A stretch of DNA of 47,620 nucleotides. Origin: a bacterium (GTDB taxonomy: Bacteria; Patescibacteriota; Minisyncoccia; Sungbacterales; SURF-37). The stretch covers positions 1 to 47,620 of the forward strand of contig JAUSHI010000007.1 of the NCBI GenBank assembly GCA_030648055.1. Reading direction: 5' to 3'. The notes beneath the pieces were generated by a model. The model was not told the DNA's origin. It searched no databases and was given only the letters and a program-made list of their open reading frames with translations. Of this stretch, positions 6,549 through 46,391 are shown piece after piece (position 1 is the first letter of the stretch; each line of letters starts with the position of its first letter). Made by a program: the position numbers and the translations under genes.

Positions 6549-7730
6549 CTAAAACTTGGCCGGCTTCAAAGCGGCGTGAGAATACAATTCGTTAAGTTTT
6601 TTTATAGACCGCGGACCCACAAAACCGTTCGTCGTAATACCGTATTTTTTCTGTAATTCAATTACCGCTTTTTCCGTGCACAGACCGAATTTGCCCGTAA
6701 GACCACATTCATTTTTTGAAAACCCCGCCGGAGGATAAAGCCCTTCTTCGGCCAAGGCAGCCTGCAAAGCAAAAATATCGCGGCTTTTATCTGGCCCTCT
6801 TTTTAAATAATTCTTCCAAACGTAAGGCAAAATTGACATATTTTTTGTTATCTCTTGCGGGTTAAGATACTTTTTAACACCTAAATAAGTTTGATACGCC
6901 AATTCTTCTGCAACCAGCGGCCGAACAACAGGGCTATTAACTTGTGGCTCATATATGTAGCTATATTCAACAAGCAACGAAGCACTGGTGCGTGAAGAAT
7001 TTGAGCCGACCGCGATAAGGTCCTGGTCTTCTACAACTCCCGTATTTTCCTGCGGGTGATTGCTTATCGCGAAATATCTCTGCAATTGCCCAAAGACGGA
7101 CTGCGCGAATTCCATGCTGTCGTCAAAATTCGGCAGCTGCCTTTCCGGAACATAAACCGCGAACCCGGTATACTTTCCTTCCCTGTTAAATATGCGCTCC
7201 GGGTAATCGTTAAAATGCGCGTGCAAAACCAAGTCAACGCCGTTTTCGTTTGCCCATTTATTTATGCCATAAAGCTTAACCGAATTTTCTTCTGTGGCGT
7301 AGTTATGGTGAACGGTTGTATTTTTTGTAATCAATCCCCCGTTCAAAAGATTTTCAAAAGCGCTTTTTAACCGGTCGCGAAAAGATAAAATATCGGAATA
7401 ATTATTTTGAAAATACCCCGCGAATTCAGGTTTATAGCCATTATTGTCCCGGGTAATAAAAACTTTAAAATGCGGATTGGCGTTAAAAAACCTAAAAAGT
7501 TTTTCGGCAACTTTTAAATTCAAGTCCGCCTCCCGCAAATTCTTGAATCTCGCCCCGCCCAGCGTTTCATTGTCGTGCCCCGGAACAATAAGTATCTTAA
7601 ATTCACTTCCATTGTATTTATCTTTTAAATCGCCGTGGCCCGTATTTTCAAAAGCCAAAGAACCTCTCACCGTCATCACAAAAAAGGCGGAATAGGCGGT
7701 TATTAAAATAAACAAGGCGTTAAATTTCAT
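6549..7730 (-). CDS. N-acetylmuramoyl-L-alanine amidase with C-terminal peptidoglycan-binding domain
   Basis: ILIVPGHD, EADLNL, LHAHFND, LVEYSY; C-terminal LQAALA...TGKFG..TEKAVIELQKKYGI..GFVGPRS. Confidence 0.85.
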   Translation of the reverse strand: MKFNALFILITAYSAFFVMTVRGSLAFENTGHGDLKDKYNGSEFKILIVPGHDNETLGGARFKNLREADLNLKVAEKLFRFFNANPHFKVFITRDNNGYKPEFAGYFQNNYSDILSFRDRLKSAFENLLNGGLITKNTTVHHNYATEENSVKLYGINKWANENGVDLVLHAHFNDYPERIFNREGKYTGFAVYVPERQLPNFDDSMEFAQSVFGQLQRYFAISNHPQENTGVVEDQDLIAVGSNSSRTSASLLVEYSYIYEPQVNSPVVRPLVAEELAYQTYLGVKKYLNPQEITKNMSILPYVWKNYLKRGPDKSRDIFALQAALAEEGLYPPAGFSKNECGLTGKFGLCTEKAVIELQKKYGITTNGFVGPRSIKKLNELYSHAALKPAKF

Positions 7731-9689: not shown

Positions 9690-10549
9690 AATTTCTTTGT
9701 CATGAATATCGCAATGACGACTCCTATTATAATAATACTCCAATTCTCGTAATTTTCGTACCAGCGAAGCGGATTCTGCGGCGGAATTTTTTCCGTTCGT
9801 ATATTGCCAGCTTTATCAATCGCTTTCACAAAAACATAGCTTTTCAACTTTTGATCTCGTAATACATGCGGGCTTTCCGCTGAAGTCCACCTTGAAAACG
9901 ACCCCAAAATTCTGTGCCGCACCTCTTTTATTTCGTAGCGGTCAATGCCTGATTTTTTATCTTGTGTCGCAAAAACCAAAAACCACTTACCGTCAAATAT
10001 GGCTGGGTCGCGCGCAATCTCTGGCTTAAATGATTCTGGCGGTTCTTCGTCCTTTATCTTTTTCAGAGACAAAGGCAACGCTTGAGCTGTAACCGCAACC
10101 TCAAGAGGAGACGCGGAAATATCAACTTCGCTGCCCGAGCCATCGTTGCGAAGGACTTTTATGCTCTGCATTGCAATCCTGCCGATTCCTTCTTCTTTCG
10201 CCAAAAAAGTAATTTTAAAGATAAGACCTCTTTTGCCAATAAATCCGCCCGGCGTGATGCCGGAAAAAAAGATTTCGTTTGCGGCGCGAAGCGTCGGCCG
10301 TTCTACCCAAAAATTAATAAGAGAGTTCCCGTCGTTTAATTCTTTGAATTCTAAAATGTCAGCCGGAAATCGCAAAATACCCTCAATAGCATTAACGTTC
10401 TCGCTTTCCGCGTTCAAGAAAACGCCGATTTCAAATTCGGTATTCGCCTTAACTTTTCTGGTATCGGCGTCATAAAAAATCTCCGCCGCAAAAAGATGGT
10501 GTGGAAAAAGAAACGATATGCTTAACAAAATAAATAAAATCTTTTTCAT
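9668..10549 (-). CDS. cohesin-domain protein with C-terminal membrane anchor
   Basis: signal peptide; NAIEGILRFP..LEFKELNDGNSLINFWVERP..IFFSGITPGGF; C-terminal TM and basic tail. Confidence 0.75.
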   Translation of the reverse strand: MKKILFILLSISFLFPHHLFAAEIFYDADTRKVKANTEFEIGVFLNAESENVNAIEGILRFPADILEFKELNDGNSLINFWVERPTLRAANEIFFSGITPGGFIGKRGLIFKITFLAKEEGIGRIAMQSIKVLRNDGSGSEVDISASPLEVAVTAQALPLSLKKIKDEEPPESFKPEIARDPAIFDGKWFLVFATQDKKSGIDRYEIKEVRHRILGSFSRWTSAESPHVLRDQKLKSYVFVKAIDKAGNIRTEKIPPQNPLRWYENYENWSIIIIGVVIAIFMTKKLWRKKRT

Positions 10550-12031: not shown

Positions 12032-13063
12032 TTATTGAAATTTGCCAGCTTGCGCTTTTTTAATAATCCAGCGGTTGTATTTTTTAAGTCCAAACCAGCC
12101 GCCCAGACCCAAAACGGCCAAGATAAGTGCAATGATACTCAACAACTGCCACGGGATAACAAAAAATCGGTAGCTTGTCTCGGCGGTTTTATTGTCGTTA
12201 CCGTAGGTCAGGTTTAATTTCGCGCTGTATAATCCAAACGCAAAATTGCGCCATTGATTGCTGACGGACGAGAAAAATCCGTGGTTTTCTTCTGCGCCCT
12301 CTGCCGGTGACGAAAATACCGCGAGCTTATCCTGCCCTTTTTCAAACCACACGACCTTAAACTTACGAATGCTTCCCGGCAAAACATTGCCATTCCCGCT
12401 ATTGGCATCCAGCGTTGCCGTGGTAAAACCAAATAAGTTTTTAATCTTTAGTTCGCCGGTTGGTTTCACTCGCTCACTCCCATCATTTGAAAAACGATAC
12501 GCAAAAGTTATGGGGAAAAAACTCGCCACCCGACTACCTTCATCTATCTTCAAATCTAAAAGACCGCCGCCTTCTTTCAACTCGCCGGTAACGCTCAAGA
12601 GAACAAGCATGCCAAGTTTTCCGCTCACAGACACCTGTTCTCCTCCTTGTCGCCCCGGCGGAGAGGTGCCCCAAAAAATCGCGGCAAAATACCCGCCAGC
12701 TTCAACGCCTTGAGGTATTTGAATCGTGTAGGGAATTATTTTGCGCTCGTCTGCCTTCAAAACAACATTATCTTGAACAGTGACCCACGAAGCAAGCCCC
12801 TTTGTTGTGTCGGGTAAAAAATAAGGCGCGCCCGAATCGCCACGCGCTTCAAAATTTGCCGCGGAAGAATAAAAAGTTTTTGTTTCGCCCTGCTCGTTAA
12901 AAAGTTCAATTTCGCCACGCAGTGTTTGGCCCGGATCGCCTGCGATCTCCATCCTCACGGGGGAGATTGTCAAAGCCAAAACAGGCCCCGTTAGAAATAC
13001 AAAACCCCCCATTACACATAGGGCTATTATTACATACGACTTTTTTGTGCAACTTTTAATCAT
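12032..13063 (-). CDS. DUF916/DUF3324-like WxL-interacting membrane protein
   Basis: signal peptide then LTISPVRMEI..PGQTLRGEIELFN..LASWV..IPYTIQIP..GGYFAAIF; C-terminal TM; alternative TTG start 13075. Confidence 0.7.
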   Translation of the reverse strand: MIKSCTKKSYVIIALCVMGGFVFLTGPVLALTISPVRMEIAGDPGQTLRGEIELFNEQGETKTFYSSAANFEARGDSGAPYFLPDTTKGLASWVTVQDNVVLKADERKIIPYTIQIPQGVEAGGYFAAIFWGTSPPGRQGGEQVSVSGKLGMLVLLSVTGELKEGGGLLDLKIDEGSRVASFFPITFAYRFSNDGSERVKPTGELKIKNLFGFTTATLDANSGNGNVLPGSIRKFKVVWFEKGQDKLAVFSSPAEGAEENHGFFSSVSNQWRNFAFGLYSAKLNLTYGNDNKTAETSYRFFVIPWQLLSIIALILAVLGLGGWFGLKKYNRWIIKKAQAGKFQ

Positions 13064-13087
13064 AGATGGAAACAATTTCTAACGGGG
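12986..13087. repeat. 102-bp element with perfect 13-bp inverted repeats overlapping a gene start
   Basis: CCCCGTTAGAAAT (12986-12998) / ATTTCTAACGGGG (13075-13087). Confidence 0.7.
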
Positions 13088-22036: not shown

Positions 22037-22104
22037 CAAACACCTTGAGCCGGGCTGAAGGATTGCCTTCCTTTGCCGAAATTGATAATCTCAAATCAAC
22101 AGCC

Positions 22105-22752
22105 ATGTTAGACAAAACCCTTGAACAATTGTTTGAATCAACGGCAAAAATACGCACTTTGCGGTTATTTTTGATGAACCCGGATAACGCGTTTACGGCT
22201 GACGAGGCCAAAAAACATACGCGGCTTTCAGGCAGGCAGTTTAAAAATGAACTCAATAAGCTGATGAAAATCGGCCTTGTGGCTACACGAATTGACCGCT
22301 TTACATTTGAAATGCCCGGAAGAATAAAGAAAGGCCGCAAAAAAGCGTTAAAACTAAAAATAAAAATATCCAGAAAAAAGGTGTTTTTTGCCGATAAAAC
22401 TTTTCTCCTCTATCCGGAACTGCGAAGTTTGGTGTTTAAGATGGCGCCGGACGGACGGGGCGCGCTTCTTTCAAAAATCAAAAAACTTGGCGACATAAAA
22501 CTCGCGCTCGTTTCCGGAGTATTCACGGATACCGACTCCGCGAGAGCCGACTTAGTCCTTGTCGGCGACAAACTAAAAAAAGAAAGAATTTCCAAATTCT
22601 TCAGGGGTCTCCAGGCAGAGGTAGGTAAAGAATTAAATTATGCGGTCATGACTTCGCAGGAATTTAACTATCGCTTCAACATGCAAGACAGGTTTATCCG
22701 CGATGTTCTGGATTTCCCTCACGAAAAACTCATCAACAAGCTCGGCATTTAG
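22105..22752 (+). CDS. wHTH plus degenerate nucleotidyltransferase-fold protein (conserved hypothetical)
   Basis: LEQLFESTAKIRTLRLFL wHTH start; SGVF..ADLVLVG; start ATG 22105. Confidence 0.6.
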   Translation: MLDKTLEQLFESTAKIRTLRLFLMNPDNAFTADEAKKHTRLSGRQFKNELNKLMKIGLVATRIDRFTFEMPGRIKKGRKKALKLKIKISRKKVFFADKTFLLYPELRSLVFKMAPDGRGALLSKIKKLGDIKLALVSGVFTDTDSARADLVLVGDKLKKERISKFFRGLQAEVGKELNYAVMTSQEFNYRFNMQDRFIRDVLDFPHEKLINKLGI

Positions 22753-22755
22753 CTC

Positions 22756-23012
22756 GGGCGCATAGCTCAGTTGGTTAGAGCGTTGTCCCGATTTTGCTCC
22801 CGCACTTTGCGGGACTGCAAAATCGATGATCCACGACGGCTAAGCCGTCGGAACATTTTCACCCTACTACCTTCTACGGGCACTTAGCTCAGTGGTAGAG
22901 CGTTGCATTCACATTGCAAAGGCCATAGGTTCAATCCCTATAGTGCCCAAAACAAAAAGGTGGGAGGGCGCGGGCATTGCAAAGGTCTCTGGTTCGAATC
23001 CAGATGCGCCCA
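22756..23012 (+). tRNA. Val-type tRNA split by a 189-nt insert (interrupted tRNA or pseudogene)
   Basis: 5' half 22756-22785 (GGGCGCA..D arm..TTG); 3' half 22975-23012 (CATTGCAA..T arm..TGCGCCCA); 7/7 acceptor pairing between halves. Confidence 0.8.
22878..22949 (+). tRNA. tRNA-Val(CAC), nested inside the split tRNA
   Basis: GGGCACT/AGTGCCC acceptor, TTGCA-TTCACAT-TGCAA anticodon arm, GGTTCAATCC T arm. Confidence 0.93.
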
Positions 23013-23021
23013 TCAAAACAT

Positions 23022-23050
23022 AAAATCCCGCCGCAAAGCAGGATTTTGTT
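23022..23050 (+). terminator. terminator after tRNA locus
   Basis: AAAATCC(C)GC..GCAGGATTTTGTT hairpin. Confidence 0.55.
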
Positions 23051-23187
23051 GTTATTACAACACCATTTTTGTTTAATTCGTCAATATAGAAATTTCTGGA
23101 GAATATGTTTAAATAGGGAAACTGCGGGTAAGCAGCAAATAACGGTCTGATTTTAATGCTATACGGACTCGTAATTTTACGGCAAAC

Positions 23188-46100: not shown

Positions 46101-46172
46101 CTATTCGGAGCAAAAATAAACAAAGTGAAAATATTGAGTTTTCTCAAGAATTTTGTTACTCTTTTTTTATCG

Positions 46173-46290
46173 GCCCCATCGTCGCGAGGGCTGAAGCCAA
46201 CTGCTTGGCTTCGGCGGGCGATTTAGCGAACCCTCCGCGGTGAGCGTGAAAAATCGCCCCGGCGATTGCCGAGGAGGCAATCGAGGACAT
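46173..46290. repeat. GC-rich hairpin cluster upstream of tRNA-Glu
   Basis: GAAGCCAA..TTGGCTTC and CGATTGCC..GGCAATCG stems. Confidence 0.35.
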
Positions 46291-46314
46291 GGACATTTCT
46301 TTATAAAAATACTT

Positions 46315-46391
46315 GGCCCTATCGTCTAGCCTGGTTAGGACACAAGCTTTTCAAGCTTGGTACCCGGGTTCAAATCCCGGTGGGGCCACCA
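46315..46391 (+). tRNA. tRNA-Glu(TTC) with encoded CCA
   Basis: GGCCCTA/TGGGGCC acceptor, CAAGC-TTTTCAA-GCTTG anticodon arm, ends ACCA. Confidence 0.95.

Follow-up and report, generated by a model that had tools for sequence, protein, structure and literature searches.

A 47,620-nt stretch of a patescibacterial genome (order Sungbacterales, assembly GCA_030648055.1; contig JAUSHI010000007.1, here C2:1-47620 and referred to as the window) contains a tRNA gene within a tRNA gene. At positions 22756-23012 an older Val-type tRNA gene is split in two, with an intact tRNA-Val(CAC) gene between its halves, and we conclude that the locus is probably a relic, in which the old Val tRNA gene was broken by nuclease-associated mobile hairpin cassettes that brought a replacement tRNA with them. 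The conclusion draws on the anatomy of the locus, on the homology between a module in the insert and a nuclease-encoding element elsewhere in the genome, on the pattern of presence and absence of such nests in relatives, on the decay of the outer tRNA halves (the shells), and on the finding of no known splicing machinery. A first-pass annotation of the sequence had offered two explanations, and it is the second, that a structured insert put a tRNA gene out of action and delivered a substitute for it, that is supported, with the addition that the hairpin elements are tied to small GIY-YIG nuclease genes. The genome comprises 614 kb in nine contigs (C1-C9) and is estimated to be 85% complete; related genomes are designated G001 and so on, and L numbers denote other contigs or stretches that were matched.

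An intact tRNA-Val(CAC) gene lies between the halves of an older tRNA gene

The nest is made up of the following parts, all on the + strand.

22756-22785, +: 5' half of the outer (old) Val-type tRNA, with the 5' strand of the acceptor stem, the D arm, position 26 and the anticodon-stem bases TTG
22786-22853, +: 68-nt double-hairpin module without an open reading frame (ORF), TCCCGATTTTGC-hairpin-GCAAAATCGATGATCC-hairpin-GTCGGAA
22854-22861, +: remaining bases CA of the old anticodon stem, then TTTTCA, the junction found ahead of the stalk in class A nests
22862-22873, +: 5' arm of the inverted-repeat stalk, CCCTACTACCTT, complementary to 22957-22968
22878-22949, +: inner intact tRNA-Val(CAC), with no encoded CCA (ARAGORN and Rfam, 74.3 bits)
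22957-22968, +: 3' arm of the stalk, AAGGTGGGAGGG, identified by direct reading, which pairs with 22862-22873 in the minimum-energy fold
22969-23012, +: junction CGCGGG, then the 3' half of the outer tRNA (22975-23012 for the half proper)

The two outer segments are parts of one Val-type tRNA, as had been proposed. A tRNA-Val profile built on 31 genes from relatives and searched with nhmmer aligned 22756-22785 with model positions 1-28 (E 4e-4) and 22975-23012 with positions 35-72 (E 4e-6), and the halves joined in silico form a cloverleaf with 7/7 pairs in the acceptor stem, 4/4 in the D stem and 5/5 in the T stem. The 3' half supplies C36-A37-T38 (CAT), the 3' strand of the anticodon stem (TGCAA), the variable loop, the T arm, A73 and the acceptor strand TGCGCCC, all seven bases of which pair with 22756-22762. 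The halves are thus complementary to each other, and their stems are distinct from those of the inner gene, which confirms that they are a separate gene and not att-site duplicates. The D loop of the outer tRNA reads AGTTGGTTA, the variable loop AGGTC and the T loop TTCGAAT; its nearest matches (82%) are the intact Val(UAC) gene of G056 and Val(GAC) genes, a resemblance that leaves the isoacceptor of the old gene undecided. An island carried by an integrase and inserted at a tRNA gene was rejected, since the 189-nt insert enclosed by the halves contains no ORF and is flanked by complementary halves rather than duplicates.

The first-pass description of the insert, with its two hairpins, its complementary flanks and a complete tRNA-Val(CAC) at 22878-22949, also holds. 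We presume that this inner tRNA is both the working gene and the cargo of the cassette. It is identical at 68/72, 66/72 and 64/72 positions to the tRNA-Val(CAC) genes of three genomes of a different family (f2), and at only 53-61/72 positions to all seven genes of its own family. This pattern is the reverse of what vertical descent would give and so fits an imported cargo; the inner tRNA looks imported on this comparison, which hints at horizontal replacement of a tRNA gene. No other Val tRNA gene was found in the assembly, Val(GAC) and Val(UAC) included, an absence that is uninformative because tRNAs for Met, Phe, Tyr, Trp and Asp are missing from it as well.

The 68-nt module shares its ends with a GIY-YIG element

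The hairpins of the module (22789-22825 and 22834-22850) interrupt the old anticodon stem between G29 and C30, and deletion of 22786-22853 restores that stem, with TTGCA pairing to TGCAA. Ten other copies, four in the same genome and the rest in relatives, align with the module over its full length. Its ends are near-invariant across copies (GTCCCGATTTTG...CAAAATCGAGGATCCTCGA...ATCGGGAC), and the terminal inverted repeats (G)TCCCGAT...ATCGGGA(C) are kept in the 11 aligned copies and in an ORF-bearing element on contig C7. In the same genome, copies without an ORF are found at C5:157786 and C4:~4155, and another occupies the T loop of a dead tRNA-Ala (C7:~49437); taken together, this genome and its relatives have copies within tRNA shells, between genes and next to duplicated protein-gene stubs. 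The inner stem, TCCCGC...GCGGGA, resembles the dRS3/NTS core.

The genome has seven single-domain GIY-YIG genes (PF01541), whose products measure about 75-95 aa. Hairpins accompany every one of these genes, and at least four of the genes adjoin tRNA genes (Ile, Lys, Ala, Arg) with tRNA stubs and hairpins.

GIY-YIG loci: C9:28429-28900, C7:48270-48870, C7:48980-49540, C8:7750-8170, C5:24750-25070, C4:23040-23320 and C5:5100-5300

The tRNA-Ala locus on C7 is the most informative of the comparisons. There the 5' half of an old tRNA-Ala gene ends ...CCGGTTTG and is followed by TCCCGATTTATACAAATTT, a GIY-YIG ORF, AAATTTGTATATAAATCGAGGATCC, a second hairpin that holds an intact tRNA-Ala(UGC) as its loop, and ...ATCGGGA, after which the old gene resumes with CATCCGG.... 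G35 and C36 of the old anticodon UGC directly flank the element, whose excision would restore a 7-nt loop. The hexamer TTG^CAT is the insertion context of both this element and the module in the window. From this correspondence the C7 element appears to be the full-length form of the window module, with a nuclease gene in hairpin 1 and a tRNA in hairpin 2; a hairpin-loop tRNA inside a tRNA gene is thus, at C7, part of a nuclease-encoding element. By the same comparison the module appears to be mobile DNA, an ORF-less miniature of the GIY-YIG element. It has what is expected of a miniature inverted-repeat transposable element (MITE), namely terminal inverted repeats in common with an autonomous element and multiple dispersed copies. 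Neither of the two tRNA insertions (Val in the window, Ala on C7) has a target-site duplication; both are clean at TTG^CAT, and removal restores the stem of the former and the 7-nt loop of the latter with no base duplicated.

Among the copies in relatives, one in G052 (L055; G052:C31 ~110-420) follows a 5' stub of the elongation factor G gene fusA that ends ...GIIAHID and is itself followed by an intact fusA start. Because the module sits between stub and intact gene start, double-hairpin elements would seem also to invade conserved protein genes, bringing a replacement gene end.

A different module type is present elsewhere in the window. At 46172-46299 a 5' stub of a tRNA-Glu (GGCCCCATCGTC...) has in its D loop a module of ~100 nt with three hairpins, in the order hairpin with loop AACTGCTT, then GGGCGATTTAGCGAACC...GTGAAAAATCGCCC, then hairpin with loop GAGGA. 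An intact tRNA-Glu(UUC) lies downstream at 46315-46391, and there is no 3' half at this stub. The same D-loop module type is found in Val shells of G059, G013, G058 and G040 and in a Lys stub on C7. As to the nuclease genes themselves, one of the seven lies between smpB and an apparent tmRNA gene, and in the one on C4 the ORF is interrupted, in frame, by a hairpin repeat. On C5, a tRNA-Ile(UAU), whose anticodon is unusual for bacteria, lies at 7301-7377, and two calls of tRNA-Arg(CCG) lie 6 nt apart at 9897-10050 with a further tRNA-like fragment just downstream, possibly another nest.

Stalks of related nests carry nuclease genes or tRNAs

The inner tRNA-Val(CAC) of the window is enclosed not by the module but by the stalk, whose arms form ten Watson-Crick pairs, one G.T pair and one mismatch; the 5' arm differs from a perfect palindrome by two changes. 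The stalk is bordered by TTTTCA on the left and by CGCGGG-CAT on the right, and the junction TTGCA-TTTTCA-CCC occurs without a module in G021, G059, G057 and G004 and in contigs from Hainich groundwater. With the module removed, the junction loops between anticodon stem and stalk measure 6 nt (TTTTCA) opposite 9 nt (CGCGGGCAT), the corresponding loops of related nests being 6/7 or 8/5 nt, so that the 3' junction of the window has 9 nt and not 7. A related arm, CCCTCCCACCTTT, is present in nests of G021, G039 and G040. The window stalk belongs to a second stalk type, CCCTCCCACCTT / AAGGTGGGAGGG, which was seen only in this order (G021, G039, G040). Across a sample of 401 genomes of the phylum, the 12-mer AAGGTGGGAGGG gave 23 matches, which is the level expected by chance, all in unrelated contexts.

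The commoner stalk of related Val nests reads TTCA-CCCCGTTA(G/C)A...T(C/G)TAACGGGG-CARG, or in short form TTCA-CCCCGTTAGA...TCTAACGGGG. A scan with TTCACCCCGTTAGA, taking one genome per species, found at least 120 stretches in many phyla. Among the matches listed, the inverted partner TCTAACGGGG lies within 1.5 kb in 81 of 126, and the cargo between the arms measures 9-257 nt. Three of these listed cargos, in L113 (Bacteroidales), L129 (Yanofskybacteria) and L141, measure 253-257 nt, and each is a complete GIY-YIG ORF of 80 aa (E about 1e-34). Another four are tRNAs: a Thr tRNA that lies reversed within a D loop, and Val-GAC, Ala-CGC and Val-UAC. Further Val(UAC) nests occur in L056 (Niyogibacteria) and L105. 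The cargos suggest that the commoner stalks are the ends of nuclease elements.

Six inverted pairs CCCCGTTAGAA...TTCTAACGGGG that enclose about 15-210 nt and no tRNA are scattered over the genome of the window, and they are, to judge from their sequence, MITE-like copies of the stalk family of the related tRNA nests.

tRNA-less stalk pairs: ~12986-13087 in the window; C1:39949-39978, C2:48330-48450, C3:4719-4942, C5:6195-6313 and C5:41768-41884

At C5:~6313 the right hairpin end reads into a near-consensus promoter (TCTAACGGGG-TTGACA-17 nt-TATAAT), with TACAAT at C2:~48450; stalk elements may supply, or sit at, -35 boxes.

The recurrence of these sequences bears on the idea that tandem Val paralogues were reshaped by deletion and recombination with no mobile element involved, the outer halves being remnants of flanking paralogues. 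Val genes are indeed clustered in relatives (Glu-Val(GAC)-Val(UAC)). However, the 7/7 complementarity of the halves and their difference from the inner gene show that a single gene was their source; the anticodon arm is broken at the same place in both; and the stalk and module sequences recur at Glu, Ala, Thr and Lys tRNAs and in other phyla. We regard this explanation as highly improbable.

Shells come and go at the same site in relatives

The site can be followed across genomes by the gene that precedes the nest, and the nest is followed by a hairpin.

22045-22752, +: anchor gene of 235 aa from the ORF list, ending ...HEKLINKLGI*, a syntenic marker of the tRNA-Val(CAC) site
23022-23047, strand not assigned: hairpin with U-rich flanks just past the nest (consensus terminator scan), followed by a T run on the + strand

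The product of the anchor gene has no match in Pfam. Its homologues lie directly 5' of tRNA-Val(CAC) in seven members of the family and likewise in other families of the order. The hairpin was called on the minus strand by the scan, yet it is symmetric and is probably the terminator of the transcription unit. Other genes of the neighbourhood (a sigma-70 factor, RNase Y, MsrA/B) are bacterial, and the genomes of the relatives measure 0.5-1.2 Mb. What follows the anchor gene differs between genomes.

G006, G001 and G011 (same family): anchor gene, then one plain intact tRNA-Val(CAC) without shells
G012, G018 and G060 (other families): anchor gene, then one plain intact tRNA-Val(CAC) without shells
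The genome of the window, G004 and G008 (same family): anchor gene, then nests of 1-3 shells
G007:C74: anchor gene, then a relic
L207 and L208 (Hainich groundwater): one shell type that has a hairpin module in the D loop (about 92% identity between the 5' halves), with different inner cassettes

Sought in related genomes, the same nesting is thus present at the same site in G004, in G008 and in the Hainich contigs. Shell status varies even inside one genus, G001 and G011 being without shells and G008 with them. Unpaired 5' or 3' halves are present in G015, G026, G057, G017, G039, G028 and contig L207, the last of which is missing its 3' half, and at the loci examined the outer shells are the more damaged, with extra hairpin modules in D, anticodon or T arms. 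G004, which is 99% complete, is the closest well-assembled relative with the same shell: site, D-loop and T-arm type and module subtype (hairpin CGACGGC-NAA-GCCGTCG) agree with the window, and the two shells are apparently orthologous. Besides its inner Val(CAC), G004 has intact stand-alone Val(GAC) and Val(UAC) genes. Plain genes at the site, lost halves and the separate Val genes of G004 together argue that shells are dispensable and transient, and the outer halves of the window would then be a young relic. The first-pass annotation had named decay of the halves in relatives and intact Val(GAC) and Val(UAC) genes elsewhere as signs of a pseudogene. The halves do decay or go missing in relatives, and both genes are intact in G004; neither gene was seen in the assembly of the window itself. 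A search of metagenomes for an empty-site allele of the same species found none, only the two related groundwater contigs (L207 at ~78% identity), each of them nested.

The same comparisons speak to whether the shell is kept for a function in cis, as a processing scaffold, as promoter or terminator context, as a stabiliser, or as homology arms for the cassette. Complete shells usually have perfect acceptor pairing with lineage-specific sequences, the two groundwater contigs combine one shell type with different inner cassettes, and the right ends of related hairpins in the genome abut -35/-10 boxes, all of which would suit such a role. One half has nevertheless been lost at many loci while the inner tRNA gene is still intact, three family members have tRNA-Val(CAC) as a plain gene, and perfect stems are equally expected if the shells worked until a recent invasion. 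We consider retention for a function in cis unlikely, though it deserves some weight.

In an assembly of nine contigs of metagenome type, reads of several tRNA-Val genes could in principle have been joined into a chimera. The locus is internal to a contig of 117 kb, and the composite of shell, module, stalk and inner tRNA is found at the same syntenic site in independent assemblies: G004 has the same shell and module there, and G015 is 79% identical across the 5' half, the module, the flank and the beginning of the inner tRNA. Because independent assemblies of related genomes share the layout, misassembly appears unlikely, and we give the idea that the whole nest is an artefact next to no credence.

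The proposed splicing of the outer halves is not supported

The other explanation offered by the first-pass annotation was an intron-like arrangement, in which one precursor releases two Val isoacceptors or tRNA halves. In the strict form of this idea the locus is a genuine nested intron or cis-split tRNA, and an endonuclease and ligase of a kind as yet undescribed join the halves of a 257-nt precursor into a second valine tRNA. Several observations suit it. The outer stems are perfect, and the whole 257-nt nest folds much better than shuffled sequences (z = -5.2). With a gene before it and a probable terminator after it, the nest is probably one transcription unit, Val(GAC) and Val(UAC) genes were not found in the assembly, and borders of the form TCA...CAR would leave exactly 7 loop nucleotides in both junction classes of the related nests.

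The known means of splicing were searched for with negative results. No Rfam match to a group I core (RF00028 or related) reached the gathering threshold in the window, and none was obtained at E up to 10 in 22600-23150. A group I intron was rejected on this ground and because the insert consists of simple hairpins and a tRNA with no P3-P9 core, its position and borders being unfitting. EndA (PF01974) was found in 0 of 62 genomes of the order, with positive archaeal controls, and RtcB (PF01139) in neither the genome of the window nor 12 relatives, with ten positive controls. Direct reading of the junctions revealed no bulge-helix-bulge (BHB; 3-4-3) motif, and a 4-bp helix is impossible between sides of 6 nt and 9 nt. 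An archaeal-type BHB intron or split tRNA was rejected accordingly, as motif, EndA and RtcB were all not found. No hammerhead-type core was seen by eye in the module, which also has no Rfam match for self-cleaving ribozymes.

The junctions themselves are no easier to reconcile with splicing. Only two joins of canonical length are available in the window. One is CC-GAC, which ARAGORN accepts and which the first-pass annotation had proposed as a GAC anticodon completed by six bases of the insert (TCCCGA). It was rejected because these six bases are the conserved terminus of the module, which is found at non-tRNA sites too, and because the loop would have C33 and a 31-39 mismatch. The other is UU-UGC, obtained with TCA...CAR borders, on a body with G3-C70, which has neither Ala nor Val identity. 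Remnants of the old loop in the window are T32-T33 on the left and C36-A37-T38 on the right, and class A shells are alike in this; class B shells keep N34-A35 and are without C36. Every related junction is without A35 or C36, the sole exception being level 2 of G059. On present sequences, a Val anticodon of the outer gene thus seems not to be recoverable by any consistent excision, here or in related nests. A fixed splicing rule was also rejected: TCA...CAR borders, established by reading rather than by tabulation with regular expressions (which suffered from register problems), give 7-nt loops with the wrong anticodons UGC, GAU and CAU on Val-type bodies, and TTCA...CARG borders give 5-nt loops.

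Against a nested intron stand, in addition, the 9-nt 3' junction and the second insert, which breaks the anticodon stem; genomes of the same family that are entirely without halves, and the frequent loss of halves singly; the three Val genes that G004 owns besides its shells; and the occurrence of identical kinds of insert in intergenic DNA and protein-gene stubs. The claim that two isoacceptors are released could therefore not be upheld: no excision restores an anticodon, EndA, RtcB and a group I core are missing, and members of the family do without the halves. We judge a nested intron or cis-split tRNA to be improbable. If the halves were spliced, a new RNA-processing pathway would exist in Bacteria.

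A related proposal treats the nest as a working precursor, from which the inner tRNA-Val(CAC) is freed by RNase P and 3' processing and an undiscovered bacterial activity excises module and stalk. A connection of the excising activity with the small GIY-YIG proteins or the conserved hairpins is conceivable, and the joined halves, with editing or an unusual loop, would give a second valine tRNA or a tRNA-like RNA of another role. Were this true, Patescibacteria would have protein-dependent, multi-intron tRNA genes of archaeal style with introns that carry tRNA genes, but we think it very improbable.

A model for the origin of the nest

According to the relic model that we favour, the gene ending ...HEKLINKLGI was once followed closely by an older Val-type tRNA gene. 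The anticodon loop of this tRNA gene would have been cut by a short cassette, an inverted-repeat stalk with a complete tRNA-Val(CAC) in its loop, and the dead 5' half would then have gained the 68-nt module in its anticodon stem, unless the module came with the cassette. Full-length relatives of both kinds of hairpin enclose a gene for a single-domain GIY-YIG nuclease of approximately 80 aa, and we infer that such a minimal nuclease, supplied by autonomous members of the family, breaks folded loops of tRNA genes, possibly in trans, with seven of them encoded in the genome. The observed insertion points of hairpin elements are the anticodon, D and T loops and one G^C step in a stem. The simplest way for the cassette to be copied into the break would be repair templated on a gene copy that already has it, with the tRNA halves providing the homology, and repair of this kind could explain why freshly invaded shells have perfect stems and why one shell type has different cassettes. 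As the cassette supplies its own tRNA, the host would lose nothing, and the next invasion would strike the inner gene and so lead to nesting. The transcript would end at the 23022-23047 hairpin, and the inner tRNA presumably matures from it through cleavage by RNase P, trimming of the 3' end and addition of CCA; the outer halves would be non-functional by-products that decay over time.

Some observations sit uneasily with the relic model. A nuclease gene is neither within nor beside the nest in the window, so that action in trans or an earlier loss of the ORF has to be assumed, and no ORF-bearing stalk of the CCCTCCCACCTT type was found in the 401-genome sample; this missing form is the main gap in the argument for the window locus. 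The junctions are regular (stalks always bordered by TTCA or TCA and CARG, with 13 nt in every case from anticodon stem to stalk), a regularity not derivable from a simple cut-and-paste rule. The stems of the outer halves are all perfect, whereas the stalk arms already hold two changes, and complete shells of relatives mostly have 7/7 acceptor pairs with differing sequences (GGGCGCA here, GGGCACA in G004, GGGCTCG in G007), which could arise from selection on pairing. Lastly, Val(GAC) and Val(UAC) are missing from the assembly though GTT, GTC and GTA make up 76% of the Val codons of the genome.

If the model is correct, a selfish element invades an essential gene without cost by keeping a spare tRNA in its own hairpin loop, and it leaves nested fossil halves behind. 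Minimal GIY-YIG nucleases and their hairpin repeats would then be linked to the turnover of tRNA genes in ultra-small bacteria, and, as the inner gene resembles that of another family, to their horizontal replacement. There are practical consequences too: tRNA halves and shells can be mistaken for split or intron-containing tRNAs, and nests can hide genes from gene finders and break assemblies.

Comparison with known systems

In line with the first-pass remark that no described bacterial equivalent was known to its author, full-text literature searches found no published account of tRNA-in-tRNA nests in bacteria. In appearance the nest resembles the disrupted tRNAs of archaea, which include tRNAs with BHB introns and split, tri-split and permuted tRNAs (PMC4090602, PMC3218864, PMC4390854). 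As in these, the halves are separated, complementary flanks extend the anticodon arm, and D- and T-loop interruptions occur too. The likeness goes no further than appearance: EndA (0/62), RtcB and the 3-4-3 BHB are lacking, a Val anticodon cannot be rebuilt, the halves are dispensable, and the inserts are DNA repeats that are also found outside tRNAs. Group I introns occupy the anticodon loops of bacterial tRNAs, such as cyanobacterial tRNA-Leu and Azoarcus tRNA-Ile, and share with the nest an intervening sequence of comparable size (189 nt here) in a bacterial anticodon arm. What was found is better described as the work of nuclease-driven selfish elements than as a new RNA-processing system.

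MITEs and the REP/REPIN repeats are short, palindromic, ORF-less elements with the terminal inverted repeats of an autonomous element. The elements described here resemble them in having several copies per genome and in inserting into intergenic DNA and dead genes. They differ in that the presumed mobiliser is a GIY-YIG nuclease and not a transposase, that no target-site duplication is evident, and that a functional tRNA cargo is possible.

The Ssn family of single-domain GIY-YIG nucleases is flanked by the hairpin repeats NTS/SRM, and its characterised members, which are relatives of the proteins described here, cut single-stranded DNA next to hairpins; the layout of repeat, gene and repeat has been likened to an insertion sequence and compared with REP/RAYT (Chenal et al. 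2025, PMC11893778). That paper makes no mention of tRNA genes, tRNA cargo or nesting. The genes described here are similarly GIY-YIG-only, of about 80-95 aa, bracketed by hairpin repeats and accompanied by many ORF-less repeat copies, and Ssn-like cutting of single-stranded DNA next to hairpins would fit the targeting of loops. The SRM motif HGTCWY..YYVSBRH..WNVSBRG..RNCYNB is not enriched, with one match in the genome of the window and two in a reversed-sequence control. The copy in the window is without an ORF. On C7 the ends of the module flank a GIY-YIG ORF, and the CCCCGTTAGA stalk brackets ORFs in L113, L129 and L141.

The Seg genes of T4-like phages are free-standing genes for small GIY-YIG homing endonucleases and are associated with tRNA genes. 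Unlike these, an element of the window type lies inside its target gene and holds a replacement tRNA in a hairpin loop, so that nested shells arise after repeated invasion; the elements are, moreover, chromosomal in ultra-small bacteria, and the copy in the window is without a nuclease gene. The presumed manner of spread is the same in both, through a break in the cassette-less allele and its repair from the cassette-bearing one, with no need for an intron.

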